A DNA stretch of 63,781 nt from a virus (lineage: Duplodnaviria > Caudoviricetes): IMG/VR virus record IMGVR_UViG_3300038309_000160, positions 1-63,781 of that record. One strand, written 5' to 3'. Of this stretch, positions 16,001-30,950 are shown piece by piece. The number at the start of each line of letters is the position of its first letter. The stretch's first letter is position 1. The notes beneath the pieces are model-generated. The model made no database searches. It was not told the DNA's origin and saw nothing but the letters and a program-made list of their open reading frames with translations. The translations under genes were made by a program, and so were the position numbers.

Positions 16001-16763
16001 TCTTAAAGGAGGAAATTGGAGAATATTGTATATGCTTAAAACTTATACAATAAAACAACTTGATGTGTTTCGTAATGAGGTTTATAGAGAATTTAAGAAT
16101 GGTGATATAAATCAAAAGATTGGTGCAATGAAAAATATGGTCCAGCTTATGGGAGTTCTTGTTCTTGCTAATGCTGGAGCAGATGAGCTTAAAGATTTTC
16201 TTTTAGGAAAAGAAACAAAGCTTGAAGATAATGTAATTGAAAATCTATTAACTATAGGTGGAGCAAATCGGTATGTTCGTATGCAAGCACAAAGAGAAGG
16301 TATTGGCACAGCAGTAACTCAGTTAGTTCTTCCCCCATTTAAGTTTATAAACTCTTTAGGAAAAGATGTAAGTAAGGGAAACTTATTTGATTTGGAAGAA
16401 TCAAAAACTTTAGAATCTATTCCATTGATTGGAAAATTAGCTTATTGGCATGTTGGTAGAGGAAGTGAATATAGACCATCTGTTGAAGAACAAGATTTTT
16501 TGAAAATTGGAAGAAAGTTTAATAAATTTAAAAAGGATTTTGAAGAGTCAAACGATAAACGATTATTCCTACAGACGAATATAGATGAATTTAAACAAAT
16601 GAAAATTTATGAAGGTTTTAATTCTTCTACAAAAGAAATTACTGCCTTAATAAATAAGCTTAAAAAAATCGAGCAAACTACAAATGTAAGAAAAAGAATT
16701 GGACAATTAGAAGAACGTAAAAATCAGATAATGCAGAAATATTTTGAATTAACAAACAATTAA
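10014..16763 (+). CDS. Large polyvalent (injected) protein: Gly/Ala-rich N-terminus, GNAT, HExxH metallopeptidase-like and ART-PolyVal-like domains
   Basis: 2249 aa. GNAT motif A ILVEPEFQGKGFGQKLL; WHENLH...ENRA; FKKWFGKSK...MIFYHYS...YLKMEKP...GYDSIII...FVIFDSNHVKS. Confidence 0.75.
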   Translation: MKLESFGTAVNEQTEEELPFFGNITTNKESKNVLPEEDNLPFFGNITTNKTPVDEPVKKDQTDKDLAIQAAGGDFLSGLKGSFQSLQASLYGAAGLAGSATDAENIKDFGFEGYQRNISEASKYPTKTLRDVKEAEGFADTVGTAVDWVQGAAGKILPSMATAAIGSVVGAIAGSATAGPAGTVAGGVGGLAAKTILKKAINTATKKEISRQIKNGLIKEGGEAALEKSLKAQFTKQALQKLGGKIGMGAAVLPMEAGGNYGELLAEKGIDAPGTALFFGALATSLEYLGGNSRLIDNFIDTIGKGSGGAIKKSALQILRNMPEEALQEAGQEALSILNTVVNTDEKFLTPENIERMVEAGGVGAIGGGFGSVAGTFLNSSKADTGFNKDKTLDKVYKNITSYGSSYVSSTINRINEDISKANEILQKPEMLKQQADALSLSVEELTNNLQEQIANSTQLKERLSKFKLPEASKKVIDVKSLVQSIREKTNWDKVNRSSRSDAWFEGARVNEKARKGFIEALEAGGQDIQAHGMAKENTFIGGLENLLNLLKGGLNPNRGNGRLYTAPLVSKAGEGLIVDTASGSAYNEGPFMLLARPEQELVSDLSGVGAILVNETHADVINEIRDAVHAIRPDIIVETYGSAGSVVRQLKETTEVSKPKEYWQVWEDEIKQQRQASELKKQEDKKYQEAQKRIQENPDYQRRKALQEKWNAEEKTTAEKEAETIQMEVALQELQRTEGLTDEEIRDERANFYEKLWGTYPAKDAKRSAEVFTEQSDEEYRAIEKAVIQKHIENIMQETDRATRERAYDFLFGGVKDAAESFDIFNKTDLITRKGKPYQRREFLEGYLADRPDAANWDIAEVPGGFVGIRKIIKSTDVPVNKASTFTDEQQVESLENELTQKISDESGGGKLQEYSTKEGNPVGYTIVRPDNMFQAAAKRMYKEVDKNDKVLRLSEILVEPEFQGKGFGQKLLLEAFKAHPGVWLGNSQIGLGETKEAAINALEKVPGIEIHWAREKGGHFVARLKTETNADTLPEFELRQNNIPGKGLKRQEIQKMFPGQNVFFGDNNTISVRLKNGKGITFQTIQDAGKGFIEYAIQTGQMSKNGKILGVTIGNKILIDSQFADTKTGWHENLHALENLGMITPEDISAINEEFNKLRKSNQLGFALSTHTDPIQRMKENRANTFAQIMVNREQYRDTPLGKIIQKVKDFFDQIYVMGKRFLTSNQDFQTSSSLAREVESGKFYDRPIDGITVQDVVDTNPFTVETFPQLTYQEKTSTKTQVFKKWFGKSKTRDKETDEPMIFYHYSPEPITEFKHMPGANTGHATSGLGHFFFGKKDPDAHYGQYEIAGYLKMEKPYFMGTAEASSFTTVNEAMARQQELRDKGYDSIIIDNSEVDGMYVGGQPYFVIFDSNHVKSIYNSGNWDLNENNIYLQVSEPSTEQSIPQEEYDDVYNQKANLLEKIQQLLRMKSSEIKLMADKSLTPISTRLKKIDNELAMKMRELDFKIALKINSALQEAYPIMKTKMSSEDKVAWDWARKNSDEGKINQLVEKYGFQENYNNLRNVLNQIRQDAIDVGYDVGFVENYWPRIIKDQEGFLQATQEISRRPEFTEALKERADKLGISVADLRERFPDVTADIISNVILGRSSGIGGPGNIQGRVFDKIPVEYANFYMNSDAALMQYIYSMTKKIEARKFFGKVPENISKIKQKINSAQISLLNLEQQEALLLSESSLSEEQQKLLDSYREQKTTLMDNIRTYNGKLEEYKLQRDYTENIGALINDLMIAGKLNKNDEKSLREILDARFHERGTTGIVHNYKNFSYIDVMGSPFSAITQIGDLAWAMYVGKAWTPKGFADTTKHLVQAIFKQSNITKEDLGIERMAQEFADFDSFSNLVSKVFKVVGLEKMDSIGKELLINNAFSMYKKQVQTENGRRELLQKIRPIFGTQSNQVINELLALSEDSTVKPSDNVKMLLYSRLLDFQPVALSEMPEYYLKGGNWRILYMLKTYTIKQLDVFRNEVYREFKNGDINQKIGAMKNMVQLMGVLVLANAGADELKDFLLGKETKLEDNVIENLLTIGGANRYVRMQAQREGIGTAVTQLVLPPFKFINSLGKDVSKGNLFDLEESKTLESIPLIGKLAYWHVGRGSEYRPSVEEQDFLKIGRKFNKFKKDFEESNDKRLFLQTNIDEFKQMKIYEGFNSSTKEITALINKLKKIEQTTNVRKRIGQLEERKNQIMQKYFELTNN
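12671..12684. repeat. GTTCA-N4-TGAAC palindrome (inside the polyvalent gene)
   Basis: GTTCACAGATGAAC. Confidence 0.75.
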
Positions 16764-16768
16764 ATAAA

Positions 16769-17146
16769 ATGGAGATTATTATGAATCGCATTTATACTGA
16801 AACACTTGTAACTGATAATGTTGCTTGGGCAGGTCAAACCATTGCTGCTTCTGGATCTTTAACAAGTGATGCTTTTGATTTATGCAGATATACTCCAAAT
16901 GGATATTTTGGTATTCAGTTTAAATATACTGGATCAGGCACTATTGCATTAACTTATACAATGAGTAACAATGGAACAACGTTTGCTGCTCCTAATGATG
17001 GTGGATCTATTGCTACAGGATTATCTGCAGGAACACATCTTTATCAGTTTGAACCTGAACCTTTTAGGTATATTAAAATTATAGCTACTGAAACTGGTAC
17101 TTCTGATGAAGCAGTTGTAACTGAAGCAATTCTTTCTATTCAATAA
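16769..17146 (+). CDS. Small beta-rich virion protein
   Basis: 125 aa; TMSNNGTTF and PFRYIKI motifs common in tail accessory proteins. Start may be ATG 16781. Confidence 0.5.
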   Translation: MEIIMNRIYTETLVTDNVAWAGQTIAASGSLTSDAFDLCRYTPNGYFGIQFKYTGSGTIALTYTMSNNGTTFAAPNDGGSIATGLSAGTHLYQFEPEPFRYIKIIATETGTSDEAVVTEAILSIQ

Positions 17147-17157
17147 AGAGGCTTATT

Positions 17158-18387
17158 ATGAGCTTTAAGAATAAAGGTCCATGGGGAGGTAATGGCCCAT
17201 GGGAATCTAGTAGATCTCCTTGGGGAGTTTCTAGTCAAGTTTTTTCTGGCATTCCTGCAAGCGAATCCGAAGCTCTGGTTGCGTTTTACACGGCCACCGG
17301 TGGCGATTCCTGGACGGATAACACCGGATGGTCTGGCGGTGCGGCTGATGATGCCCTGGGGGTTACGGTTGTTGGCGGGCATGTAACCGCCATCGAGCTA
17401 CCCAACAACAACCTGGACGGGGACGCAGGAACCACGCTAGACCCGCTGGCGGCTGCTTTGGCGGTGCTTGACCTTGGGCAAAACCCCGCCCTTGATGATA
17501 TCGACGTGTCGGCCCTAACTGCCCTCGCAGATATTGACTTTGCCGGTTGCGATTTCGGCTCAAGTGTTGTGGCTGGCATCCTTGCCAACGTAGTCACGGC
17601 GGGGGTTAGCGCCGGAACGCTTGATATAGGAGGCAGCAATTCAAGCCCGTTGCCTGCCGGGGTTACTTCGCTACAAACGCTTGAGGATGACTCGTGGACG
17701 CTGACATATTCAACGGTCGTGCGGGAAAATACCGGCTCGTTCTACGTTGTCACCAAGGGCGGTGAAGCCAAGTTCAGGTCATCCGCAACCGATCTCTCAA
17801 GCCAGATCGGAAAGTATATCGTACTTAAAGACAGCGCCGGGAAGTATGCGGAGGCGTACATTGATGCGGCTGATAGTGCGGAGGCTTCCACATTGTTATT
17901 TTCGGATGACATGACAATAGACAATACAGGTAATTGGTATACAAATGATTGTACACTGACATTCGATACTGATCATTATGTTGTTACATATGTCAATCTG
18001 ACACAGAGTATTATTTTTCAGAATGCCTATAATCAGGAGGAAGGCTTTTTGTATAAGGCTGTTTTTGACGCACGAAACGGCGCGTCAATTATAAATACAG
18101 CGTTTTGGACGGACTATTTCAGCGGTAGATTTGCTCAAGTCGAAGGAATCACAAATACACTTTTCACAAGCATTTCATCCGATTCGACATCAAGATATCA
18201 ACTTCAATCTTTACTTAATTCAGGATCATATTTAGTTTATGGTGTGTGGTTGTATAAATACACCCATCTCGGCACCGACGCCGTAGTCCTAGAATCAACT
18301 CTCGGCGGTAATAACGGAACGTTTACAGATATTGAATCAGGTTTTAACCCGAACAATATAGTTCTTGTGGAGGTGTTTAACCCATGA
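17158..18387 (+). CDS. Putative receptor-binding/tail protein with LRR N-cap and short leucine-rich repeats
   Basis: ESEALVAFYTATGGDSW...GVTVVGGHVTAIELPNNNLDG...LAVLDLGQN...LTALADIDF. Confidence 0.6.
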   Translation: MSFKNKGPWGGNGPWESSRSPWGVSSQVFSGIPASESEALVAFYTATGGDSWTDNTGWSGGAADDALGVTVVGGHVTAIELPNNNLDGDAGTTLDPLAAALAVLDLGQNPALDDIDVSALTALADIDFAGCDFGSSVVAGILANVVTAGVSAGTLDIGGSNSSPLPAGVTSLQTLEDDSWTLTYSTVVRENTGSFYVVTKGGEAKFRSSATDLSSQIGKYIVLKDSAGKYAEAYIDAADSAEASTLLFSDDMTIDNTGNWYTNDCTLTFDTDHYVVTYVNLTQSIIFQNAYNQEEGFLYKAVFDARNGASIINTAFWTDYFSGRFAQVEGITNTLFTSISSDSTSRYQLQSLLNSGSYLVYGVWLYKYTHLGTDAVVLESTLGGNNGTFTDIESGFNPNNIVLVEVFNP

Positions 18388-18746
18388 AAAAAATAATTAT
18401 AGGAGCGATAGTTATGGCAATGTCAACAACGGCAATGGCAAAAGATAAAAATCAGATAACGGTTGAGGCTATCGCAACAAGCGAAAAACCAGCAGCGGTA
18501 CAGGCAAAGGTGGACGCAATCAAAGCCAGTGTTAAATCCAAGGTCGAGGCAAAGACGGAAAAGACGCAGACCGTCCGGGCCGGGGCTGGCGATATGGTTT
18601 TAATCCATGACGGCGCAAAAGTCATCATGGTTAAAGAGCTCGACCCGTTGGAAGAAATGAGCGTACCAGCTACCCGCACCGTGTTTGTTGGGACTGCCGG
18701 AAAGGTCAATGTTGAAATCAAAAAGTTGGGGTTGGCTGAAAAATGA
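18384..18746 (+). CDS. Hypothetical protein with signal peptide
   Basis: MKKIIIGAIVMAMSTTAMA signal; GGAGG RBS. Confidence 0.6.
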   Translation: MKKIIIGAIVMAMSTTAMAKDKNQITVEAIATSEKPAAVQAKVDAIKASVKSKVEAKTEKTQTVRAGAGDMVLIHDGAKVIMVKELDPLEEMSVPATRTVFVGTAGKVNVEIKKLGLAEK

Positions 18747-18868
18747 GAGACCGGGCCGTGCTTTACATACCAGTTTTCTTTTTTGCCTGGGCAGCGATGG
18801 TGATTTTTTTGGTGGGTTGGAGAATATACAATTATTTACGGGGGTATTATGGCACTAAGCGGACTTGA
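18743..18868 (+). CDS. Small single-TM protein (41 aa, below ORF-track cutoff)
   Basis: ATGA overlap with the upstream stop; MRDRAVLYIPVFFFAWAAMVIFLVGWRIY... Confidence 0.35.
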   Translation: MRDRAVLYIPVFFFAWAAMVIFLVGWRIYNYLRGYYGTKRT

Positions 18869-19208
18869 GCAGTTATTGATAGGTGCGGGACTGACGTTAA
18901 CTTCGGGAGCGGTATCGGGGGCCGTGGTTTGGATGAAGACGGCTAAAGACAAAGTTGGCTATGACGAATGTATACGCAACCGGGAAAAGATTGAAGAAGA
19001 GCATCGGATTAGGTGTCCTGAAAATCGACGGGTGCTTTCAGTCGATGACCATGAAAGCATTTGCTCCAAAAATCTGACGCCGATCCACCGGGAAATTAAA
19101 GAGACGAAAATGACGATTGCGCAGATACATGAAAAGATTGACCGGCTGTTGGTAGAACAATCAAAGCACGTCACCTTGAAAGACCTCGAACCATTATTGA
19201 GGCGATAA
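18849..19208 (+). CDS. Holin-like membrane protein
   Basis: One N-terminal TM helix plus coiled coil, directly upstream of the endolysin. Confidence 0.5.
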   Translation: MALSGLEQLLIGAGLTLTSGAVSGAVVWMKTAKDKVGYDECIRNREKIEEEHRIRCPENRRVLSVDDHESICSKNLTPIHREIKETKMTIAQIHEKIDRLLVEQSKHVTLKDLEPLLRR

Positions 19209-19209
19209 A

Positions 19210-19620
19210 ATGTATCATCTTGGAAAAGAAAGCAAGTCTCGGTTATCGACATGCTGCCCCGAACTGAAAAGTTTAGTTGAGCTTGCCATTGCTGTTTCGC
19301 CGATTGACTTTGTCGTTATTGAAGGCCATAGGGATTATGACCGGCAGGAGCAATTATTTTCTGAAGGGAAAACCAAGGTGCATTACCCGTATAGCAAACA
19401 TAATCCCATACCATCAGAAGCGGTCGACCTTGGGCCGTATGTCAATGGGAACTTGTCATGGGATTTTAACCATTGTTGCGTTCTTGCCGGGGCTGTTTTG
19501 GCGGTAGCAGAAATGACCGGGATAAAAATTAGATGGGGTGGCAATTGGGACATGGACGGAGAGCCTATTACTGACCAAGACTTCCAAGATTTAGTGCATT
19601 TTGAAAAAGTTGGCCCGTAA
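19210..19620 (+). CDS. Endolysin, peptidase M15 family (L-Ala-D-Glu peptidase-like)
   Basis: EGHRDYDRQEQLF, SKH...AVD, RWGGNW and DLVHFE motifs. Confidence 0.9.
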   Translation: MYHLGKESKSRLSTCCPELKSLVELAIAVSPIDFVVIEGHRDYDRQEQLFSEGKTKVHYPYSKHNPIPSEAVDLGPYVNGNLSWDFNHCCVLAGAVLAVAEMTGIKIRWGGNWDMDGEPITDQDFQDLVHFEKVGP

Positions 19621-19718
19621 ACCCGCAACCATCAAGGCTTGGCAGGCAGGCTTAACGAGAGGCCCTAGAATCGACGATCTAGTACAAGGTAAGGGTAACA
19701 TAGCCGGGAGATTTGAAC

Positions 19719-19982
19719 ATGAAACGCATTTTTCGTGATATCAAAGAATTTTCAACTGACGGTTGCACTATGTCGCCTGATTTCGATTTTCGTGACTGCT
19801 GCGTTCGGCACGATCTTGACTATTGGCGAGGTGATGTTACTAGGGCCGAGGCCGACAGACGATTAAGGCAGTGCATTAAAGAAAAAGGCTATGTTGTTTT
19901 GCCGTGGATATACTGGGCCGGGGTAAGGCTGTTCGGCGCCGGCCGGTTTAACAGAATTAAAAAACATAGGAGGTTTCCGTGA
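19719..19982 (+). CDS. Small Cys/His-Asp protein (prokaryotic phospholipase A2-like / DUF1353-like)
   Basis: DGCT...CCVRHDLDY...ADRRLRQC...YWAGVRLFG. Confidence 0.6.
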   Translation: MKRIFRDIKEFSTDGCTMSPDFDFRDCCVRHDLDYWRGDVTRAEADRRLRQCIKEKGYVVLPWIYWAGVRLFGAGRFNRIKKHRRFP

Positions 19983-20347
19983 AGAGACTAATTACCGTAT
20001 TGTTTTTGTTAGCGTGTCTGGGATGCGCTCATAACACGTCGTTTGTTGAGCATGCTTACGATACCATCGCAAGCGCGAACTACACAGTAAACGCCATGAT
20101 GGAGGTGGCAGGGCTGGAGCATTGCGCCGGGAATCTGACCGACGAACAGAAAAGCCGAATCATAGCGGCTTATGCTCAATACAAGCTGGCGGCTGACCTG
20201 GCCGATGAAGCCCTGGCTGTCTACGCTGCTACAGAAAAAGAAGATGACAAATTGGCATATGTCCGCGCTTTAGCGGAGCTGCTAGACAACGAGAAAATTA
20301 TCATTGATGTTCTTAACGCGTTTTTGGAGGTCGACCATGACAGATAA
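19979..20347 (+). CDS. Lipoprotein, possible spanin component
   Basis: MKRLITVLFLLACLGC lipobox; located in the lysis cluster. Confidence 0.6.
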   Translation: MKRLITVLFLLACLGCAHNTSFVEHAYDTIASANYTVNAMMEVAGLEHCAGNLTDEQKSRIIAAYAQYKLAADLADEALAVYAATEKEDDKLAYVRALAELLDNEKIIIDVLNAFLEVDHDR

Positions 20348-20519
20348 AGAAAAAGAGCTTGCAATTGACATCATCCGGCTAATTATTCAGGTAGGTGTTC
20401 CGGCGGCGATAAAGGTTATCCAGCAAATCCAGATTACCAACAACCCGACACCCGACGAAATCAGCGCCTTGAGCGACATGCTAAAGCAACCTGAAGATTA
20501 CTTCAATTGCGGAGGATAA
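20337..20519 (+). CDS. Hypothetical protein (60 aa; probable start ATG 20337)
   Basis: GGAGG RBS upstream of 20337. Confidence 0.5.
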   Translation: MTDKEKELAIDIIRLIIQVGVPAAIKVIQQIQITNNPTPDEISALSDMLKQPEDYFNCGG

Positions 20520-20521
20520 CC

Positions 20522-20674
20522 ATGAAAAATTTCATCAAGCAACACCCGAAAAAAATCTTGGCACTGGCTACAGCGGTCGTCGCTGGTGCTATTGGGTATT
20601 TCGTGCCGGAACTACGAAATGAAGCTTATGCCGCGGTCCGAGCCGCTTTGGTTGTGCTATGCGGGGTGTTTTAA
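20522..20674 (+). CDS. Small membrane protein, holin-like (50 aa, not in ORF track)
   Basis: GGAGG RBS; MKNFIKQHPKKILALATAVVAGAIGYFVPELRNEAYAAVRAALVVLCGVF with two hydrophobic segments. Confidence 0.55.
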   Translation: MKNFIKQHPKKILALATAVVAGAIGYFVPELRNEAYAAVRAALVVLCGVF

Positions 20675-20739
20675 ACGCGCCGTTAATATTATGATAATCC
20701 TGATCATATCGCCCTCCTCGTTTTGGTGTTATGGCCTTA

Positions 20740-20835
20740 GGCTAACGCCTGAATTTTGTGGCCGCCCGGCGACTGTGCCAGAACGCTTCCATTGGCCGGT
20801 CTGCCGGTGCGGTCCAGAGCAATGAATTGTTATAT
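20740..20835 (-). mobile_element. Integron attC site of cassette D (96 bp)
   Basis: On the minus strand: R'' ATATAAC, imperfect hairpin (CTGGACCGCACCGGCAGAC / GTCGCCGGGCGGCCA), R' GTTAGCC. The ORF stop lies inside R''. Confidence 0.8.
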
Positions 20836-21009
20836 TTCACCCTGCTTAATTACAAGCACCGGGCCAGCGCTGTTCCTTATTGTTATTCGCAACGCCCGCA
20901 AGTAATCCACTGTCGTTGCTGGTTCTTTAGGGCTCGACCATACCGCAAAAAATAACGGCATAGACTTTGGGAAATAAATCGGTAAAAATTTTTTAAATAT
21001 CCACTTCAT
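20830..21009 (-). CDS. Cassette D ORF, 59-aa hypothetical protein
   Basis: AAGGAGG RBS; MKWIFKKFLP...KQGEI; fills the space between GTTATATTTCACC and its complement GGTGAAATATAAC. Confidence 0.65.
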   Translation of the reverse strand: MKWIFKKFLPIYFPKSMPLFFAVWSSPKEPATTVDYLRALRITIRNSAGPVLVIKQGEI

Positions 21010-21034
21010 AGCCAGCCTCCTTAAAAGGTGAAAT

Positions 21035-21066
21035 ATAACAGTGTAATAAGTGGAAAATTACTCCAT
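21035..21066 (-). repeat. attI-like / degenerate attC element, copy 1
   Basis: ATGGAGTAATTTTCCACTTATTACACTGTTAT; 31/32 identical to 23220-23251; ends at the G/TT that begins cassette D. Confidence 0.7.
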
Positions 21067-21092
21067 ATGTATTTTATCTTGTTCTATTTCCA

Positions 21093-21551
21093 TTATTTTC
21101 CCCGCGGTAACTGCCTGACCGCATCACCGATGGTGCCCTGGAAATACCAGTCTGCGTTTAGGTCGTTCTTGATTTCCTCAACGGTCGGAATGCCACACCA
21201 ATAGTTTGTAGTCACATATTCAACGTACTGATCCCTTGGCCAGCCATCCCTTCCCAGGCGGTCGTGTAAATCAATTAAATGCCATTGCTGGTCATCGTTA
21301 CACCATACCTCATTCCAGCAATGAGCCGCGAAATTGCCAGTTACACCAGCGTAACCGCAACACAATTTGCTTTTGATACTGGCCCGGTGGTACAGGATTT
21401 GTCCTTTTCGCGCCTTGACGCAGCAGTCGCCTTTTGTCGCCCACTCTATCTGCTTGACGTGGGTTTTTTCAGGGATGTAGACCTTGGTGGTTAATATGCT
21501 ACATCCGGTTGCTATTGCGATAATACATGTGATAATAATTGTTCTGATCAT
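21093..21551 (-). CDS. Lipoprotein with transglutaminase-like C-H-D pattern
   Basis: IATGC lipobox; GDCC...AHCWNEV...WHLID. Confidence 0.55.
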   Translation of the reverse strand: MIRTIIITCIIAIATGCSILTTKVYIPEKTHVKQIEWATKGDCCVKARKGQILYHRASIKSKLCCGYAGVTGNFAAHCWNEVWCNDDQQWHLIDLHDRLGRDGWPRDQYVEYVTTNYWCGIPTVEEIKNDLNADWYFQGTIGDAVRQLPRGK

Positions 21552-21654
21552 GATACTCTCCTGTTTAAGATGTTGTGGTCTGCCTCGACCCCTGGTGGTG
21601 CAGGGCCGGGTGGTTGGCTTATATAATGCACTTTCTTTTCTTTGATCTGCCTTT

Positions 21655-22113
21655 TTACTCCCGGCTTTTGTAATATTCAGCCCAGTTCGCGATTTCCATC
21701 AACACCTCCGTCCAGTGCGGTTTCCATTCCGTGTCTTCCGGCTTTTCTGGCCCCGGCTCGTAGTCATGGCGGCAGGTGGCGCACTTGTCGGGCTGCCTTT
21801 GATATCCGCATTCATTCAGGCAAAAGCCGTTAACTCCAGACAAAAGCCCGCCGCATTCAGGGCATGATGTTTTATCCTGTTCTGCCACCCACTCCTCACG
21901 ATCCGGGGCAGATGGGGAGCGGCGGTAAGGCGGAGCAGATTCAGGACCAGTTTTATGGTTTGTGAATACCATATATTCATTGCACGGATGCCATGTACCG
22001 CAATGTCGGCATTGATACTCCCACCACTCCCACGCTTTCGGATTAACCTCTAAGTCCTTTTCATACTCGCACCGGGCGCAGTACCCGGTGACGCCGTGCT
22101 TGCAGTTAGTCAT
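21655..22113 (-). CDS. Multi-CxxC (Zn-ribbon) hypothetical protein (probable start ATG 22113)
   Basis: GGAGG RBS; CARC, CRHC, CPEC and CATC motifs. Confidence 0.6.
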   Translation of the reverse strand: MTNCKHGVTGYCARCEYEKDLEVNPKAWEWWEYQCRHCGTWHPCNEYMVFTNHKTGPESAPPYRRSPSAPDREEWVAEQDKTSCPECGGLLSGVNGFCLNECGYQRQPDKCATCRHDYEPGPEKPEDTEWKPHWTEVLMEIANWAEYYKSRE

Positions 22114-22271
22114 TTGGCCTCCTTTTTCGCCTTGCGGCGTCTGGCTCTCGCCATCTGCTTTTTGGCCCATTTCGTGAATCCCGAATGGGCGTGTGGGCGA
22201 TGATATGGGCAGCGACATTCTTCTCTCCACCATAACCATCGGCCTTCCGCTTTGTTTACTGGCTTTGCCAT
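22110..22271 (-). CDS. Small basic protein (53 aa, not in ORF track)
   Basis: GGAGGG RBS; MAKPVNKAEGRWLWW...ARARRRKAKKEAK; ATGA overlap with the next gene. Confidence 0.5.
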   Translation of the reverse strand: MAKPVNKAEGRWLWWREECRCPYHRPHAHSGFTKWAKKQMARARRRKAKKEAK

Positions 22272-22362
22272 TCATCCCTCCTTCGGCGGGGCGGGGAGCG
22301 GTTGCCAGTGGGTGACACGCTCATCGTCATAGAAGATACATCCGTCAAGCTCAAACCATTCT
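22272..22362 (-). pseudogene. 5'-truncated DUF551-like gene remnant
   Basis: Reads WFELDGCIFYDDERVTHWQPLPAPPKEG*, the typical DUF551 C-terminus, with no start codon; abuts a half attC. Confidence 0.65.
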
Positions 22363-22363
22363 T

Positions 22364-22401
22364 TCGCGTCTTTTTGCGTCAGGTTGATTTGATGGTTATA
22401 A
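22364..22401 (-). mobile_element. Truncated attC of cassette C (left arm only)
   Basis: TTATAAC-CATCA-AATCAACCTGACGCAAAAAGACGCG on the minus strand; the right arm and R' are missing. Confidence 0.6.
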
Positions 22402-22575
22402 TTCTCTTACAAGTACATCATGAACCTTATTACACTTCACGCATTTTCTTTTTTGACGCAATTCAACATATGGGACCTCTCGCCCTTGTGATGCTTTCGG
22501 TGCGAGTCTTCCTAGAATTTGGATTCCACGCTCTTCGTATTGTTCCCATTTTGACCATTTATGGAAGATGCACAT
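22396..22575 (-). CDS. Cassette C ORF, 59-aa Cys/His protein (DUF1660-like pattern)
   Basis: AGGAG RBS; MCIFHKWSKW...RKCVKCNKV; bounded by GTTATAATT and AATTATAAC. Confidence 0.7.
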   Translation of the reverse strand: MCIFHKWSKWEQYEERGIQILGRLAPKASQGREVPYVELRQKRKCVKCNKVHDVLVREL

Positions 22576-22588
22576 TTTTGTCTCCTAA

Positions 22589-22717
22589 TTATAACGTTAA
22601 AAATTGTGGGGCTGGCAGGGTAGCGGCCAACTTCGATTACACCTACTCTCAACCGCTCCCATGCCCACTTGCTTAAAAGCAAGACCCCGCCAGTCCCACA
22701 CCAACGACTTGTTATAA
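22589..22717 (-). mobile_element. Integron attC site of cassette B (129 bp)
   Basis: TTATAAC-AAGTC-GTTGGTGTGGGACTGGCGGGGT ... ACCCTGCCAGCCCCACAATTTTTAAC-GTTATAA, with about 3 unpaired bases on one arm. Confidence 0.85.
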
Positions 22718-22936
22718 ATCATATTCCTGGTTAAATCGAAAATTATACCATTCCAACAGGATTGCCCTTATTACCTGGTGGTGTTCTTCTGCCTCGATTT
22801 TAACTTTATCCATAAACCAGTTTTCGATTAGCCCCATTGGAACTACATGAACAGATTCGGTAACCGGGTCTGTAAAAATCATCCACTGGCCATCTTCTTT
22901 TTTTGCATACTCTGTTATATTAATTACGTCAGCCAT
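22712..22936 (-). CDS. Cassette B ORF, 74-aa hypothetical protein
   Basis: GAGG RBS; MADVINITEY...; stop TAA inside R''; bounded by GTTATAAATC and GATTTATAAC. Confidence 0.7.
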   Translation of the reverse strand: MADVINITEYAKKEDGQWMIFTDPVTESVHVVPMGLIENWFMDKVKIEAEEHHQVIRAILLEWYNFRFNQEYDL

Positions 22937-22952
22937 AATCACCTCTTTTGAT

Positions 22953-23013
22953 TTATAACGAAAAGTTCACCCGCGCCGCGAAGCGGGGTCGGATGTGAAA
23001 CGCCTTGTTATCT
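22953..23013 (-). mobile_element. Integron attC site of cassette A (61 bp)
   Basis: AGATAAC-AAGGC-GTTTCACATCCGACCCCGCTTCGCGGCGCGGGTGAAC-TTTTC-GTTATAA. Confidence 0.85.
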
Positions 23014-23015
23014 GT

Positions 23016-23198
23016 TTACTGATCACAAGGCCAAACAAAAGCCTCGGCTCGACAAGTAAAAACCGCCCAAGCGTGTTTGACGCGATCCATGAACGACATG
23101 CACTCCCGTCGATAGTTTAGCGGACGGGCAGGAACCCATTTGCCATCGATACAGGTTTGAGGTAGATTTTTGTCTTGAAGATCAATCAATTTCCACAT
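23016..23198 (-). CDS. Cassette A ORF, 60-aa hypothetical protein
   Basis: GGAG RBS; GKWVPARP...AWAVFTCRAEAFVWP; bounded by GTTATCTGT and ACAGATAAC. Confidence 0.7.
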   Translation of the reverse strand: MWKLIDLQDKNLPQTCIDGKWVPARPLNYRRECMSFMDRVKHAWAVFTCRAEAFVWPCDQ

Positions 23199-23219
23199 TT
23201 TCTTTCTCCAATATTACAG

Positions 23220-23251
23220 ATAACAGTGTAATAAGTGGAAAATTACGCCAT
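23220..23251 (-). repeat. attI-like / degenerate attC element, copy 2
   Basis: ATGGCGTAATTTTCCACTTATTACACTGTTAT; ends at the G/TT that begins cassette A. Confidence 0.7.
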
Positions 23252-23758
23252 CACTTTTTTGACCAGCTCCAGCAGCCGGTCTATAGCGTCTAAAATGTCC
23301 TGTTTTGTGTAGCTATTTTCCGTTGTGTTTTCAATATCTTCCGGCGTTTCCGGCTCTGAGATGTCGCTTGGAGTGTCGTTTTCTGTCGAAGCTGCTATCG
23401 GCTTGAAGTGGGCGACCAGGTATGAGAGCGGAGATTTGATTTTGGTATTTCCAATTGTTTTGAACAGAGTAATTACGACATCGCCTGTAGTATTAAAAGG
23501 GTATTCCATCTCTAGAAAATCATCCGGCGAATTGCTGGACCTATACCACGCTTCCCAATGTCTAAACACATACCCTTCTGCCGGGGTTGCATTGACCGTG
23601 TATGACATGGCATCATGATGTAAAAACGGATAACCCGGACTTGGATTGTACCATTCTCCGAAATCGTCACTCTTTATATGTCCTGCTCCAAACGGCTCAA
23701 CTGCCGTTGCAAGTCCCCACTGGCCTCATGTAAATTTCGGTAGTTTAATGTCTGCCAT
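23243..23758 (-). pseudogene. InlB B-repeat-like protein with an in-frame TGA at codon 11 (the ORF track reports only 23243-23608)
   Basis: MADIKLPKFT*GQWGLATAVEPFGAGHI...VNATPAEGYVFRHW...AHFKP all lie in one frame. Confidence 0.45.
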
Positions 23759-23781
23759 TTTTATTCTTTCTTTAAAAAATT

Positions 23782-23824
23782 ATTTTGCATGGGATTATCT
23801 TATCTCAATAATCCCATGCAAAAT
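23782..23824. terminator. Perfect 17-bp stem hairpin, probable terminator ending the replication operon
   Basis: ATTTTGCATGGGATTAT-N9-ATAATCCCATGCAAAAT, with T/A runs on both sides. Confidence 0.7.
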
Positions 23825-23828
23825 TTTA

Positions 23829-24143
23829 TTATTCAATTCCCATATCTCTTAACAAAGCATCAAGTAAAAATGTATAATTTCTCAAATCACCAATTTTCTC
23901 ATTCCAAACCTTTAAACTATGAGAATAAGGATCTTTAACCATATCACAAATTGATGTAAAATGCTTGGTCATCATTCCAACAAGAGCTTCAGTAGGTTCA
24001 ATACACTGAACTTTTCCTGCACGATGAAATTGAGTCAAACGATCATCACCACACATAGCATATTCTTTTGCTTTGTTAATTAAAGTACGTTTACTTCTAA
24101 GGACTGATTTTTCAAATTCTAATTCAAATTCTGAATGATTCAT
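23829..24143 (-). CDS. All-alpha nucleotide-modification-associated / MazG-like protein
   Basis: KAKEYA..DRLTQF...MMTKH...EKIGDLRNYTFLL pattern. Confidence 0.45.
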   Translation of the reverse strand: MNHSEFELEFEKSVLRSKRTLINKAKEYAMCGDDRLTQFHRAGKVQCIEPTEALVGMMTKHFTSICDMVKDPYSHSLKVWNEKIGDLRNYTFLLDALLRDMGIE

Positions 24144-24166
24144 TTCTCTCTCCTTTGGTTAATAAA

Positions 24167-24418
24167 TTAGTTTAGTGTAATAACATTTGATTCTTCTTTA
24201 ACTTCTTCTGGTTTTCCAGGAGGACTTCCACATTTAATACAAACTATTTTCGGCATTTGGACAAGTTGATCTTGGCCTGTTGGATTTATAAGTCCAGAAT
24301 AAATACCAAGCTCAAAAATCTGTATGAAAGTTGTACTTGGACATTCAGGATTTGAACATTTTAATAATTTTAAATCTTCTCGTCTTACTTGGAAACCTCT
24401 TTGTATTGTTTCTCCCAT
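24167..24418 (-). CDS. Small Zn-ribbon protein
   Basis: CSNPEC...CIKCG. Confidence 0.55.
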   Translation of the reverse strand: MGETIQRGFQVRREDLKLLKCSNPECPSTTFIQIFELGIYSGLINPTGQDQLVQMPKIVCIKCGSPPGKPEEVKEESNVITLN

Positions 24419-24432
24419 TTTTAATCTCCTTT

Positions 24433-25041
24433 TTAATAAATAATATTATCAAAAACAACAGGTAATTTACTTTTTAATTCTTCTAATAATGGAATCATTA
24501 AAGCTCTCATTTGAGGATGAGCAGACTTATCACAACGAAGATTAAAAATATGTCGCCATTCCCGAATATTTGCTTTTATAATAATTTCTGTTTTCAAAGA
24601 ATTTGGTAACACTTCCCTGGCTTGTTGAGGTTGCCAGCCTGAAGAAATTAAATCTTGATAAAATTCTTCAGCAAAACTCATAGCACAGGACCAGATATTT
24701 TTTTGATGTTCTGTACTTTCATCCCACCAGACTGGTTGTATAAAAAATATATCTTTTCCACCATAATTTACATACCTAGTGCTTTCTTGAGCAAAACTAC
24801 ATATGCGATGTCTTACAAGTTCATGAGTAACTCCTCGATTAGTAATAAACTTTACTATGATATCACCAAATTCAATCATAGCATGATGTTTTTTATCAAT
24901 TAAAAGTTTTACAAACTTACTTGCTGAATCATTAGTAATTTTATCTTCTGACTTGTAACAAGTTCTACCAATAGATTCTAGGGTTTTTAATAAATCATTT
25001 GGGATACTCAAAATTTCGTAGGTCTGTTTCATTATATTCAT
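24433..25041 (-). CDS. thyX: Flavin-dependent thymidylate synthase
   Basis: ELVRHRICSFAQESTRY (RHRxxSxxxxSxR), AREVLPN, NIREWRH and AHPQMR motifs. Confidence 0.95.
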   Translation of the reverse strand: MNIMKQTYEILSIPNDLLKTLESIGRTCYKSEDKITNDSASKFVKLLIDKKHHAMIEFGDIIVKFITNRGVTHELVRHRICSFAQESTRYVNYGGKDIFFIQPVWWDESTEHQKNIWSCAMSFAEEFYQDLISSGWQPQQAREVLPNSLKTEIIIKANIREWRHIFNLRCDKSAHPQMRALMIPLLEELKSKLPVVFDNIIY

Positions 25042-25240
25042 TATATAAACTCCTTGTATTTATTACATTTTTACTAGGACATAAATTTAATTGCTCATAA
25101 GAATAAACTTTTTTTGATGCTAGTTTTAACCAAGCCATTAGTTTTATATGATGATATAAACAATATTTTCCTGTTCTCCTAGCTTGTCTAGTACATCCAA
25201 AAAAGCAACAAATTTTCTGTTCTGAATAATTGTCGTTCAT
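24995..25240 (-). CDS. Small Cys/His hypothetical protein
   Basis: CxxxGC...YCxxH; the start codon overlaps a GTTCA-N4-TGAAC palindrome. Confidence 0.45.
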   Translation of the reverse strand: MNDNYSEQKICCFFGCTRQARRTGKYCLYHHIKLMAWLKLASKKVYSYEQLNLCPSKNVINTRSLYNEYNETDLRNFEYPK

Positions 25241-25248
25241 CTGTGAAC
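25235..25248. repeat. GTTCA-N4-TGAAC palindrome
   Basis: GTTCATCTGTGAAC. Confidence 0.8.
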
Positions 25249-25253
25249 ACCGA

Positions 25254-25880
25254 TTAGTTAATTATTCCAAGTTTAATCAGTTCAAAATAACAACGAGCTG
25301 TAGCAGATATGTCAGCATAAGCATCATGAGCATCCTCAAAAGGTTCACCAAATAACTTTTCATGAAGTTCAACTAATTTTGGCCACTTAGGTTTACCGGC
25401 TTTATTCTTAAGTCCACAAAACTTAACAATCGCTTTATCTTTCATAGTACATTGAAAAGGCAAGTCTAAATAAAAAGCTGATCGAGCTTCATCAGATAAG
25501 AAATCAAGATTTCTTTCCATCATATGATTAACATATTTCCAATCAAAATCGTAATTATGACAAACAATTTTATCTGCCTTCCTCATTAGACAACCAAACT
25601 TTTCAGTAACTTCCAATTCAGGCAATCCATGTTCATCAGCATATTCCAAAGAGATGCCATGAATTTCTTCTGCCATAGGATTCATAGATCTGCCATTTGG
25701 TTTAATTAGAAGATTTATTGATTCTAGATGTTCTTTTTCAGTTGCCAAAATAGCACCGATTTGGATACACCAAGCTTGTTCTGGATCATTAGCAGGTAAG
25801 TCTTTTTTCAAGAAGCCAGATGTTTCAGTGTCGAAAAATAAAATCTTTTGAAATTCTTTTTCTTGTGTTTGCTCAGTCAT
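25254..25880 (-). CDS. DEDDh 3'-5' exonuclease (DnaQ-like)
   Basis: FFDTETSG, CHNYDFD and AHDAYAD motifs. Confidence 0.9.
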   Translation of the reverse strand: MTEQTQEKEFQKILFFDTETSGFLKKDLPANDPEQAWCIQIGAILATEKEHLESINLLIKPNGRSMNPMAEEIHGISLEYADEHGLPELEVTEKFGCLMRKADKIVCHNYDFDWKYVNHMMERNLDFLSDEARSAFYLDLPFQCTMKDKAIVKFCGLKNKAGKPKWPKLVELHEKLFGEPFEDAHDAYADISATARCYFELIKLGIIN

Positions 25881-27190: not shown

Positions 27191-30100
27191 TTATCGTAAT
27201 TCACCTAACTTAGCAATAGCTTTATCAATATTTTCTTGTGTAAAACTATCAATAGAAGCTGTTTTACCTGCCCATTGCTGACCAATTTTTGCATCAAGTC
27301 CAATGGTAAAACTTTTTCCTTTGTAGGTGAAAGTATAAGTTAAGTGATCTTTAATTATAAGAAGAATCTGGAGTAAGTTGGGAATTTGATCTTTGTGGAA
27401 TTGAAAAAGAATTGAGTCATGAACAGTTGTTAATAGCCTAATATCAAAGCCATCTTTACCAAGCCTGGGATCATTAGAAATTTTAATACTTCCACGATTT
27501 AAAAGTTCTGCCACAGTTGATTGTGGCTTATAACTGTAGGCATTGCGAAATAAAGATGGTCCCATATCTCCAAGAAAACGTCGAGGAGAATTAAATAAAT
27601 TGTATAAAATTCTTGATTTTTGTACTTCTTCTTCAATTGATTGATGCCACCGCTTTAAGCCTGGAAAACGATCTTGATAATTTTGAAGAAGTTTTTTACA
27701 TTCTGCTTGGGACATGAAAATTTCTTCTGTAGCCAGATTATCAGAAAAGGTTTGTGGTCCCATTGCATAGTTGCTTGCATGAACAACCTTTTTACCCATA
27801 TAGCGCATTGTACTTTTTTGATCTTTTTTAGTTTTTGATTCTTTAATAACTTCTTCAATAGGAACATTGAATATTTTACTTGCATTGAAAGAGTGGACAT
27901 CAATACCGGAGGTAAAAGAATCGATCATGTTAGCATCTTGGGTAAGATAAGCAACTACATGAGCTTCAGCTTTTGCAAGATCACATTCACATAAAATCCA
28001 ACCAGGATCAGATATAAGAAATTGCTTGAAAAGATACGGCTGATTTTGGAGGTTTGTATTACCAGTAATTTGAATATTTTTATTATTTCGTACAAGAAAA
28101 AAAGATGTTGGAGTTTGTAAACAATAAACCATTCCAGTATAATCAATTATTTTCCAATGTTGTTTATTTATTCTTGCATGAGTTCTTGGTTTGATATTAA
28201 TTGAGTATAAAGGTTTATTTTTTCCTTGACCATAGCCATTGTTATTATTATAATTGATCAATATTGTACAACTTTTACCAACTAAATGTGCTAGAGTACT
28301 TATAATTTCTACATTCTGTTCATTTGTAGTATAATAAATATAACTTTGTCCTCTACGATGAGCATCCCAGTATTTAATTTCATCTATAAAAGCTTCTTTA
28401 GCTTCTAAAGTTAAATCATACATCCAAGAACCAAGAGTTTTTCCATCAAAAAGAAATTTTTTAATTAAATTTGACCAATTAGATGATATACAAAAACGTC
28501 TATAACCAGAAGTAGCTTTCTGTTCAGTATAATCAATATTTCCAAGAGCCATTAATTTTAAAAATCTATTAATTTTATTTTTCTTTTTAAAAGAAACTCG
28601 AATATTTGATTCTTCAATAGTACAATCTGCTTGAACCATTGCAATTAAACGTAATAGTAATGGAGGTAATTCTTTTGTCCCATTAAAAGAACTTCCTAAA
28701 GGTAATAAACGCTCACTTAAACAAGATGTTTCATAAGCAGAATTAACACTAAAAGTTTTATGCCCAGGATGGTAAGATGGAATTCTGTGATCTGCAGTAA
28801 ATATTCCTTCAGTTTGAGTAGATTTTAATTGCATCATCTTAGAAAAATAAAATTCTTTATGTAATTTAGGAACACACCAAGATAATGAATCTGTTTTATT
28901 ATCCCATTGCATTGCTTGCATACCTTCTTGAAAATATTGTAACTGAATCCAACCATTTGGTGTTAATACTTCTGCTGAAGGTAATAAACATCCAGTTCCA
29001 AAAAAAGTCCTTTCAGTTGCTATCCGTCCAGATACTGTTCCAGAAATTTTATGACTACATCGAAGACGATTGTCATCATCTACTGGAACGTCAAAATAAG
29101 TTGATATCAATTTATTATATTTACGAATCTTAATTATCATTCGTGCTTCAATAGAGCCTTTAATATTCTTTTTTGCAATTCTATGTAGTGCTACAGTATC
29201 ACAGGATGCATTGCCTGTTGTACGATTTATATAAGGTTTAATCATACAAATACCATAAAAATAAGCAATCATCTGTTTTGATGAGGATGGATTTAATTCT
29301 TTACCAGCTATTTTATTCAGACCATGTTGAAGTGCTTTTACCCAACGTTCATATTTTTTTCGTGTTTCAATGATTCCTTTTTTATTAGTTAATATACCAT
29401 TAAACTCCATTTCCATCAATGGCTTATGAAGATCCATCATATAAGCCATAACATCAGTTGAATCGAATTCTTCTAATTCTTTGATTAGTGCCTCAGCAAT
29501 TGGAAGAAGATAAGCAGAATCTTTGGCATTATAAACCCAATATTGTGGCCAGTCTTTAATAACTTTAAGATGGGATTGTTTGCCTTCGTCTTTGTAATAA
29601 GGATAAAAAGTGTAGGCAGAGGTGAGATAATCAAGACCTTTTGGAAGCTCAGTATAACATCTGTGTTGAGCAAGCATAGTGTCAAAGAAGAAATTATCTG
29701 TTTTAATGTTCATCGTACGAAGAATAAACATTAAATCAAACATTCCATTCTGGCATATCTTCTTGATATTTGAATCATTTAAAATTTCAGCAACACCTTT
29801 CCATATTTTTACCTCCTCTTCAGGTGACCATATATTACCTTGGTTATTGAGAAAAGGTATTGACATGGAAACAATTTTTTCATCATAATAAATTGCAAGA
29901 GAAAAGCAAGTAATAAATTCTGGAGTACATTCAATATCAAAAGCTACATGCTCTTTTGTTTTAATTAAGGCATAAAATCTTAAAATTTCATCCAGAGTAG
30001 GATTTATCTTAATATCGGTAATGTCTTTTAATACATCTGGATTCTCAATTACTTTTAATGCCTTATTGAAATCAGCAATCATGGTATAGAAATGAATTGG

Positions 30101-30652: not shown

Positions 30653-30665
30653 TATTCTTAATCCT

Positions 30666-30950
30666 TTATAATCTATCCTTTTGTATGCTTTCTGGATTAG
30701 GTGCTTTAATTTCTCTGTTACAATCAAGACAAAGATAAGATTTTACCCGAATAACATCAGCGCCAAGAATATTAACACTACTATAAAATGGTTCTTTTTC
30801 ATATCCTTCAGGCCAAGTTTTTCTGGCAAAAGAAAATTCAAGTGGAACAAGATTCTTATGTAAACAACAAAAAGATTTATATTTTGATGAATTTTCCATT
30901 ATTTGTCCTGATTTAAATTTATCCATTTTAATCCTCTTCATCCTCTTCAA
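30666..30950 (-). CDS. Small Cys-containing hypothetical protein
   Basis: CLH...CLDC; co-oriented with the operon. Confidence 0.5.
   Translation of the reverse strand: MKRMKRIKMDKFKSGQIMENSSKYKSFCCLHKNLVPLEFSFARKTWPEGYEKEPFYSSVNILGADVIRVKSYLCLDCNREIKAPNPESIQKDRL

Follow-up and report, generated by a model that had tools for sequence, protein, structure and literature searches.

The phage record examined here (63,781 bp, the whole stretch of DNA analyzed and hereafter the window) carries two nearby arrays of gene cassettes, each headed by the same 32-bp element, which raises the question of what this element is, where it came from and whether an integrase acts on it. The original prediction read it either as an attI-like landing site that recruits a host integron integrase (IntI) or as the retained right half of one family of attC sites. 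The window is a complete virus with direct terminal repeats. The predicted pattern matches it twice and only twice, both times on the minus strand, at 21035-21066 (copy 1) and 23220-23251 (copy 2), and matched none of 100 dinucleotide-preserving shuffles. As predicted, the two 32-mers agree at 31 of 32 bases, the sole mismatch being position 5 (A/C), and the 28 bases left of the crossover are identical between the copies. The crossover G and TT lie at 21039 and 21038-21037 in copy 1 and at 23224 and 23223-23222 in copy 2. Past TTAT the copies part, copy 1 running into ATTTCACC and copy 2 into CTGTAATA, in line with the claim that identity ends just beyond G/TT where different cassettes begin. 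The upstream stop codon said to lie within copy 2 is the TAA of the ORF at 23608..23243, and copy 1 lies 26 nt past the stop of the ORF at 21551..21093. Both copies are intergenic within one operon, with a start codon 22-25 nt downstream.

The DNA following each copy has the organization of integron cassettes, all on the minus strand. Behind copy 2, cassette c1 (22959..23223) consists of a 60-aa ORF (23198..23016) and attC_A (AAC end of R'' at 23007, crossover G at 22959), and c2 (22595..22958) of a 76-aa ORF (22942..22712) and attC_B, of about 125 nt (crossover G at 22595). The third, c3 (22395..22594), has a 59-aa ORF (22575..22396) and is truncated, its attC being reduced to the R'' box (AAC end at 22395). 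Behind copy 1, c4 (20746..21038) has a 59-aa ORF (21009..20830) and attC_C (AAC end of R'' at 20829, crossover G at 20746, followed by TTAGCC). Sites A, B and C have the features of attC, with the extra R''/L'' bases identified by eye. Both attC_A and attC_B fold with paired ends, the latter into a long imperfect hairpin (z -4.8 and -4.5); attC_C folds with z -3.4 and -2.5 and has, by eye, three single-A bulges on its R''/L'' arm. The attC_A site aligns with the aadA13 attC and matched 2,585 plasmid records; among the matches listed are sites at aadA13 and qacL cassette genes. The c1 ORF matches phrog_21988, and a search with the 60-aa protein gave nine weak matches, mostly to records of 190-440 kb, and was uninformative.

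Complementarity between R'' and the start of its own cassette is a mark of circular cassettes opened at G|TT. In c1, 9 nt of R'' can pair with G and the beginning of the cassette itself, as against 5 nt with the next cassette. The corresponding values are 11 against 7 nt for c2 and 13 against 4 nt for c4, and c3 has 9 nt with its own start. Since R'' of each of the four cassettes pairs with the first 9-13 bases of that cassette, the crossovers are placed precisely at G|TT in both copies, and both are joined there to true cassettes. With three complete attC sites and one truncated site within 2.5 kb, and no intI, the locus qualifies as a CALIN. A tblastn search found no intI in the phage record, and no recombinase was present among the 59 phage ORFs scanned.

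The 32-mer itself does not resemble these attC sites. It is unrelated in sequence to attC_A, attC_B and attC_C and lacks the R''/R' and L''/L' inverted-repeat hairpin with extrahelical bases. The degenerate left arm that the original prediction saw at copy 1 stands as a box: an R''-like stretch, GGAAATAGAAC, is present upstream at 21081..21091 (minus strand), in which 9 of 11 bases can pair with G and the beginning of c4. The attC-like site of about 55 bp to which it was assigned did not hold up, the copy 1 region folding no better than shuffled sequence (z 0.08 and -0.44). The copy 2 region folds with its ends unpaired and without a left arm. This box is one of two observations favoring the view that the 32-mer is the right half of one attC family kept at two cassette ends; the other comes from the bacterial homologues.

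A 20-mer core of the element, ATTTTCCACTTATTACACTG, is present in 47 contigs, 12 from bacterial genomes and 35 from metagenomes, where chance would give about one match per 596 Gb by our arithmetic. About 80 nt left of the core are conserved in 46 of these 47 bacterial and metagenome loci. The sequences diverge directly past CACTG|TT, the next two bases being TT in 42 of 46 loci, with at least 35 distinct sequences downstream. On the opposite strand, upstream of the core, is an ORF for an integron integrase (TIGR02249, 433.6 bits; cut-off 265). Upstream sequence of 300 nt or more is available at 34 loci, and 24 of them have a divergent intI (16 full length) or a partial remnant of one (8), starting 52-260 nt from the core. 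The 16 full-length integrases form six lineages with 69-100% identity. Counts of attC-like hairpins gave densities of 0.52 per kb after the site and 0.22 per kb upstream, from the second of two scanners of our own, which is noisy and serves for density comparison only; the first was too strict and missed real sites. All five genomes checked have one exact copy of the core, and with at most one mismatch it is found in 16 of 301 genomes of one order, while control matches numbered 0. Because the left side is conserved, the sequences diverge at CACTG|TT and intI adjoins, the 32-mer corresponds to the attI end nearest the cassettes in one integron family. The check that had been proposed, position next to intI, thus favored attI. 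The bacterial attI also carries extra conserved arms, AATAAGTGGAAAAT, in two to three copies, and is itself an imperfect palindrome with an attC-like layout, which is the second point in favor of an attC half. Yet the bacterial core is single-copy and adjoins intI rather than lying between cassettes, neither phage copy folds better than its shuffles, and copy 2 has no left arm, so that an origin from attC is highly improbable.

The phage copies retain only the crossover-proximal part of this attI. An nhmmer profile of 124 positions, built from 23 bacterial attI regions, aligned with copy 2 at 23251-23222 (E 3.9e-6) over profile positions 92-123 only, and with copy 1 at 21067-21037 (E 4.7e-6) over positions 91-123. 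Only about 31-33 bases of attI are thus kept in each, and the accessory arms are missing from both. The two copies have in common a 2-nt gap to the profile that is absent from all 23 bacterial variants. In bacteria and phage alike, a conserved left side meets unrelated cassettes right of G|TT; intI adjoins the site in the bacterial homologues and not in the phage window. Each phage copy is placed directly after an ORF and before cassettes, and the upstream ORFs are phage genes without an integron platform. We are highly confident that both copies derive from attI. A retained bacterial left arm at copy 1 was considered and dropped: the profile alignment ends at 21067, and the 10-mer ATAATGGAAA occurs six times in the window.

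Our model for attI was attI1 of class 1 integrons, its structure reportedly worked out by Partridge and colleagues in 2000 and Recchia and colleagues in 1994. Like attI, the bacterial homologues are flanked by intI on one side and the first cassette on the other, have their crossover at G|TT within an R box, and carry an inverted L-box-like heptamer 3 nt to the left (TTATTAC-ACT-GTTAT) and repeated motifs further upstream. By analogy with attI1, the phage copies would read on the minus strand as an L box TTATTAC, a spacer ACT and an R box G|TTAT. They differ from attI1 in that the 32-mer is unrelated to it in sequence, is short, is present twice and has no adjoining intI; it is a putative recombination site.

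Repeats placed shortly before start codons, between genes of one operon, could also be regulatory, and the core is found at gene boundaries in other phage contigs as well. The copies might then be promoters, terminators or RNA-processing sites of the phage, or a mobile regulatory cassette that shuffles modules by homologous recombination. The PeSL mobile regulatory cassettes of T4-type phages work in this way and consist of a promoter and a stem-loop. They resemble the phage copies in being short, repeated, placed at gene boundaries of a hypervariable phage region and potentially able to shuffle modules. However, no promoter-like or terminator-like site scored at either copy, and there is no stable structure, so neither component of a PeSL was found. 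A regulatory role also leaves unexplained why the element lies at the boundary of intI and cassettes in dozens of bacterial integrons, why identity ends at G|TT and why the DNA downstream has the hallmarks of cassettes. We consider it very unlikely.

Many of the bacterial matches are at contig ends, and in sequencing run X1 the assembly graph breaks at the 30-mer of copy 1, as might be expected if phage and bacterial integron contigs had been misjoined at a common short repeat. Contigs from the independent run X2 nevertheless cover each copy with both flanks: one of 13,544 nt runs through copy 1 (covering 16500-21610) and one of 26,809 nt through copy 2 (23135-25500). The repeat is therefore not an assembly join. 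The two arrays are separated by phage genes, one of which has a homologue in contig L069 of another phage, and the record is closed by its terminal repeats, leaving a chimera with hardly any probability. In run X1 a second contig comes into the 30-mer of copy 1 out of different DNA, which begins 3 nt past the crossover. The depths in X1 fit a population variant, 97.8 and about 55 adding up to the 153.4 of the contig running on into phage genes; this evidence consists of contigs rather than reads, and X1 is possibly the source sample. Runs X5-X7, with a small share, and uncovered stretches were left out as evidence of habitat or absence. The direct repeats had also been expected to allow deletion or amplification of the roughly 2.2 kb between them. 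No such joint was seen among the contigs, which as contig-level data have no bearing either way.

Variants of the core are present in other phages. Seven other IMG/VR contigs have a core with GCTCTG or GCACTG, in up to three copies each, which adjoins attC sites and small cassettes at gene boundaries. Unlike the usual integron layout, genes point towards the site, and no intI was found in the parts of the seven contigs examined. Contigs L095 and L099 are identical at 72 of 72 nt left of the core and diverge 3 nt past the crossover. In viral_contigs, neither the 20-mer core nor a 22-mer that includes the phage-specific TA matched anything beyond the phage's own record.

The region around the arrays (17200-23730) is a foreign-looking block with 47% G+C, compared with 34% for the genome. 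A megablast search of 20000-24500 against phage records gave no match. In the backbone relatives L003-L020, DNA similarity to the phage ends at 23825, and with up to 5 mismatches allowed they contain no attI-like site. Between the arrays are non-cassette genes (21093..22271, minus strand): an ORF for a basic protein of 53 aa (22271..22110), an ORF for a Cys-rich protein (22113..21655), which is the one with a homologue in L069, and an ORF for a transglutaminase-like protein (21551..21093; PF01841, E 2.8e-5) whose N-terminus resembles by eye a lipoprotein signal. A search of phages with the 152-aa protein found no match. At the end of array 2, a 5'-truncated DUF551 gene fragment (22272..22406, minus strand; PF04448, E 1.6e-6, model positions 43-68 of 68) lacks an in-frame start codon and abuts R'' of c3. 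This end is not an integrase junction.

Such a setting can be read in two ways. In the first, illegitimate or short-homology recombination would have brought preformed fragments of a host integron into the phage, or into another phage that donated the 47% G+C module, each fragment being the last ~33 nt of attI with its first cassettes; the G|TT junctions would have been made in the bacterium and the sites never used in the phage. The foreign composition of the block, the lack of intI, the loss of the accessory arms and the fusion of a broken attC to the truncated DUF551 gene all suit such a relic, and capture through short homology could be driven by exonucleases and a Sak4-like annealing protein that the phage encodes. 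Two independent captures, however, would not give one common left limit and a common 2-nt gap, and if one captured piece was then duplicated, different cassettes must still have come in at G|TT afterwards. The variant that departs 3 nt past the copy 1 crossover also argues against it, as do the unrelated phage contigs that keep a core of about 20 nt between unrelated flanks, one pair differing only right of the crossover. We therefore regard passive capture as possible and rather doubtful.

In the second reading, which we moderately favor, both copies are ΔattI sites of one anaerobe integron family that a host integrase uses in trans. As the copies are attI docking ends followed by cassettes in a phage without its own integrase, the phage may borrow the integrase of its host to pick up genes. 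To our knowledge, IntI does not mobilize the left-hand DNA of attI, so ordinary recombination without an integrase would have brought the first attI fragment into the phage lineage. During infection a host integron integrase would be supplied in trans and would recombine the phage sites with attC of circular cassettes, so that the end of the leftward operon would offer two fixed places for loading or swapping cassettes. The alternative X1 contig shows signs of exchange at the site. On the other side, if the accessory arms are needed, the phage sites would be weak or dead; the c3 attC, cut after R'' and fused to DUF551, fits capture of a ready-made integron fragment; and the failure of blastn and tblastx to find any cassette common to the phage and the 47 bacterial loci counts against activity, as do the lack of intI in the phage and the gene direction towards the site in other phage contigs. 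Judged from sequence, it is somewhat probable that an integrase acts, or once acted, on the sites carried by the phage.

Truncated attI sites are known from class 1 and 2 mobile integrons, where they are described as 'unusual ΔattI-type gene cassettes', and IntI1 was shown there to use ΔattI sites that retain 8-12 nt or 238 nt on the left side of the crossover (PMC12901181, Sci Rep 2026). Like the phage copies, those sites keep the crossover-proximal bases, replace attC after an ORF and have the next cassette behind them. Those sites sit inside arrays, in complete integrons that clinical bacteria carry on plasmids and transposons, whereas the phage sites come from another integron family, have no intI and follow phage genes rather than cassettes. 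ΔattI would thereby extend to an environmental integron family and to viruses. Integrase-less arrays have also been reported in phages: virulent phages carry CALINs, and IntI1 was shown to act on their attC sites (Qi et al. 2023, PMC9892861). These share with our locus the lack of intI and the same-direction cassettes with attC. In the main text of that report, the CALIN boundaries have GTTRRRY-like motifs or a terminator and no recognizable attI, unlike both arrays here, whose boundary goes back, base by base, to attI in a defined family of bacterial integrons, for which about 50 natural junctions can be compared. The attG sites of Loot et al. (2024), as outlined in PMC12901181, are non-classical genomic targets that diverge from classical att sites in sequence and structure. 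They are similar in that cassettes are inserted outside an integron by IntI acting in trans, and differ from the phage element, a 20-28-nt exact match to a specific attI. Our literature searches retrieved no description of attI or ΔattI without intI in a virulent phage.

The bacterial loci define a new IntI/attI pair, from anaerobes, with an unusual, palindromic attI. Gene flow between phages and integrons becomes with it a concrete question, that of whether the integrase of this family uses the phage 32-mer. A transfer route is also suggested, in which integron cassettes could travel between cells in lytic phage genomes. We tentatively propose, with slightly less than even confidence, that a minimal attI in phages of anoxic sediment and sludge is a trans-acting gene-capture device at which the host integrase, during infection, loads or swaps cassettes at fixed points of the genome, letting a phage sample the host cassette pool and carry cassettes to other cells. 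Its origin or spread would involve no fewer than two unrelated groups of phages, represented by this phage and by the seven GCTCTG/GCACTG contigs.

The phage gene directly upstream of copy 2 (23243..23758, minus strand) was called as 121 aa from 23608, and that protein alone had no relative in viral_contigs. Its frame is open from 23725, preceded by an in-frame 10-codon leader and a TGA at 23728-23726. Beyond the phage's own protein there are seven homologues, and in the alignment the phage protein stops 0-5 residues from where they end. In the L069 version the next gene follows directly, without attI.

The 63,781-bp virus record is complete and carries direct terminal repeats. As originally predicted, it has two copies of a 32-bp element on the minus strand, at 21035-21066 (copy 1) and 23220-23251 (copy 2), which agree at 31 of 32 bases. 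These are the only matches to the 32-mer pattern in the window, and 100 shuffles gave none. Both copies are intergenic with a small ORF starting 22-25 nt downstream, and copy 2 does carry the stop codon of the preceding ORF. The local minus-strand genes form the distal end of a long leftward replication operon; near 20700 it converges with the structural and lysis genes, which run rightward. G+C content is 47% at 17200-23730 versus 34% for the remaining genome. No promoter-like or terminator-like site was scored in the 32-mer regions.

The prediction offered two identities for the element, an attI-like site or the right half of an attC, with a position beside intI genes pointing to attI. We scanned public collections for its 20-base core, ATTTTCCACTTATTACACTG, and found it in 12 bacterial genome contigs and 35 metagenome contigs; by our own arithmetic about one chance match is expected in 596 Gb. 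The genome contigs are labelled Syntrophales/Syntrophaceae, 'delta proteobacterium', Desulfobulbus, Nitrospira, Manganitrophaceae, Cloacimonadota, Bacteroidetes, and Bacillota MAGs. About 80 bases left of the core are conserved in 46 of the 47 loci, the exception being L048. Similarity in these 46 is lost directly after CACTG, which is followed by TT in 42 and AT in four, and at least 35 different sequences lie to its right. Upstream of the core, an opposite-strand ORF of about 340 aa matches TIGR02249, the NCBIfam integron integrase (433.6 bits, cut-off 265). By tblastn, intI is full length in 16 loci, starting 52-260 nt away from the core, a remnant in eight, and absent from 10 in which the upstream sequence is 300 nt or longer; the remaining 13 stop less than 200 nt upstream of the core. 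The full-length genes form six lineages, 11 sequences being mutually at least 99% identical and the other five 69-86%. Hairpins of 55-130 nt resembling attC sites, counted with our own attC scanner, occur in the bacterial loci at 0.52 per kb downstream of the core versus 0.22 per kb upstream. The exact core is single-copy in five of five genomes. With up to one mismatch it is present in 16 of 301 sampled genomes from the order of one core-bearing genome (control, 0); all but one of the 16 keep the conserved flank, and three more full intI genes are found there. Because of this position and behavior in bacterial loci, the element almost certainly derives from an attI belonging to one integron family, the first of the two predicted identities.

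The bacterial attI forms an imperfect palindrome in which AATAAGTGGAAAAT occurs two or three times, inverted at the crossover relative to the other copies. Its layout is that of an attC, and the family's attI might recombine as a folded strand. In the bacterial attI regions L022-L091 the order is a TTATAAT box, a 5-nt spacer, the 14-nt arm AATAAGTGGAAAAT, about 31 nt, the inverted arm, the 5-nt spacer ACACT, and G|TT; some genomes have a third arm about 105 nt upstream. Seven bacterial loci (L033, L040, L043, L046, L082, L085, and L087) have ATAAG... or ATAGG... instead of TT after CACTG, in most followed by an inverted repeat such as ATAAGCTGACC...GGTCAGCTTAT. This form may be an empty site or a particular insert.

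Searching the window with a profile built from 23 distinct bacterial attI regions gave two matches only, at 23251-23222 (E 3.9e-6) and 21067-21037 (E 4.7e-6). Each is limited to profile positions 91/92-123, so the two phage copies are attI sites truncated (ΔattI) to about 31-33 nt. What remains we read, on the model of attI1, as an L box TTATTAC, a spacer ACT, and an R box G|TTAT. Both copies share a 2-nt gap, with TA where bacteria have GGAMM, and the TA form was in none of the bacterial variants seen. The attC alternative did not hold, as the regions of both copies fail to fold like attC sites. No intI was found in the window by tblastn and no recombinase among the 59 window ORFs scanned. 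An apparent match to the bacterial left arm to the left of copy 1 was without statistical support. A box 15 nt left of copy 1 (GGAAATAGAAC, 21081-21091, minus strand) is complementary at 9 of 11 positions to the start of c4, the cassette after copy 1, and resembles the R'' of c4 itself.

Three cassettes (c1-c3) lie downstream of copy 2 and one (c4) downstream of copy 1, with crossover G positions at 23224, 22959, 22595, 21039, and 20746 on the minus strand. In each cassette, the stretch ending in the AAC of R'' matches, in exact reverse complement, the crossover G and the opening bases of that same cassette, over 9, 11, 9, and 13 nt; runs with the neighboring cassette are 5, 7, and 4 nt. Such complementarity is left by cassettes that were circular and opened at G|TT, and because the R'' boxes pair with their own cassette starts, the junctions are integrase junctions. 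The c1 attC aligns with that of an aadA13 cassette, with 48 invariant columns, and was matched in 2,585 plasmid records, the matches listed lying at aadA13 and qacL cassette genes. Folding of the c2 and c4 attC sites is far stronger than that of shuffled sequence (z -4.8 and -3.4). The end of the second array is not clean: the c3 attC breaks off just past R'', where it joins a 5'-truncated DUF551 gene, so at least one event in the region was not made by an integrase.

We consider a host integrase acting in trans on the phage attI sites the best mechanism, and a reasonably probable one; the integron integrase of a putative integron-bearing host would recombine the ΔattI sites. The main rival reading, which we think less likely, is that the sites are passive relics. 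The two copies share the derived form and left limit yet head different cassettes, which speaks for activity, as does a branch in the contig graph of X1, a sequencing run perhaps from the source sample. The branch point is the 30-mer 21036-21065, which holds the copy-1-specific base; one branch is a contig with the window's cassette (depth 97.8), the other a contig of different DNA, 255 nt or longer, beginning 3 nt past the crossover, and both join a single contig, 21036-25500 (depth 153.4). In X4, a 2025 run from another study, pieces are identical to the window and one contig departs 2 nt from the crossover of the c4 attC. Counting against activity, the accessory arms of bacterial attI are missing from the phage copies, no cassette is common to the phage and the fetched bacterial loci, and the variant evidence, X1 included, is at contig level.

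A degenerate core pattern also matched 10 sites in seven other IMG/VR phage contigs (L092-L100), all GCTCTG or GCACTG variants, again favoring active sites. Their flanks are unrelated, and each contig has up to three copies, at gene boundaries. The variant cores adjoin attC sites and small cassettes with own-start complementarity (10/10 nt in L094), and L095 and L099 agree at 72/72 nt on the left side of the core but part from each other 3 nt past the crossover. No intI was present in the parts fetched. Genes in these contigs point towards the site, which weighs against activity. In the vicinity are methyltransferase genes and a terminase-like ORF; in one contig each gene of a methyltransferase run follows a repeated 76-aa ORF. 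TAA stops overlap the R box in L092-L100, and by eye three attC sites there place their extra bases opposite the usual arm.

The portions of Qi et al. 2023 consulted (PMC9892861) describe, for phages, integrons together with 17 attC clusters that lack an integrase, and phage attC sites that work with IntI1. Cluster boundaries there carry only GTTRRRY-like motifs, whereas the arrays of the window are headed by truncated attI. ΔattI sites are known from clinical mobile integrons, according to passages of PMC12901181. Our literature search returned no virulent phage reported to have cassette arrays headed by an intI-less attI or ΔattI.

The ORF upstream of copy 2 is one of a small family. In alignment its protein ends 0-5 residues from its relatives' C-termini, and its final codons, ATG GCG TAA, are supplied by the attI piece. 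The phage contig L069 (47% G+C) encodes the same gene, with three small ORFs directly after it and, beyond these, a gene homologous to the Cys-rich one of the window (22113..21655); with neither attI nor cassettes in this arrangement, it is the 'empty' one. As the left part of attI is not mobilizable by integrase, the first attI fragment must have entered by ordinary recombination. The gene before copy 2 (23758-23243, minus strand) has a 10-codon leader, MADIKLPKFT, an in-frame TGA at 23728-23726, and then a conserved start-less N-terminal stretch. L069:6002-6672 shares this layout (MTDLKTITTPRFE-TGA-GQWGLATQVEPQG), the bases TGAGGCCAGTGGGGA being common to both, and both have a Leu codon where other family members have the starting ATG. 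Programmed read-through or recoding is possible.

The 47% G+C block (17200-23730) spans the cassette region and the lysis genes and takes in the C-terminal portion of a 409-aa ORF. X1 contig depths across it step through 203, 123, 100, 98, and 153, and therefore several haplotypes of the block coexist. X4 pieces identical or nearly so to 22707-25280, c2 included, carry another habitat label; because of these window-like pieces, the phage or its module is not confined to the 2015 sediment samples. A strong terminator-like hairpin with a perfect 17-bp stem and a T run (23782-23824, minus strand), overlapped by promoter-like sites, sits right after the last backbone gene, ahead of the block. In the 1178-aa DNA polymerase ORF (27191-30727, minus strand), residues 707-891 match a PHROG named ribonucleotide reductase, which separates the two polymerase parts and is possibly an intein or inserted domain.
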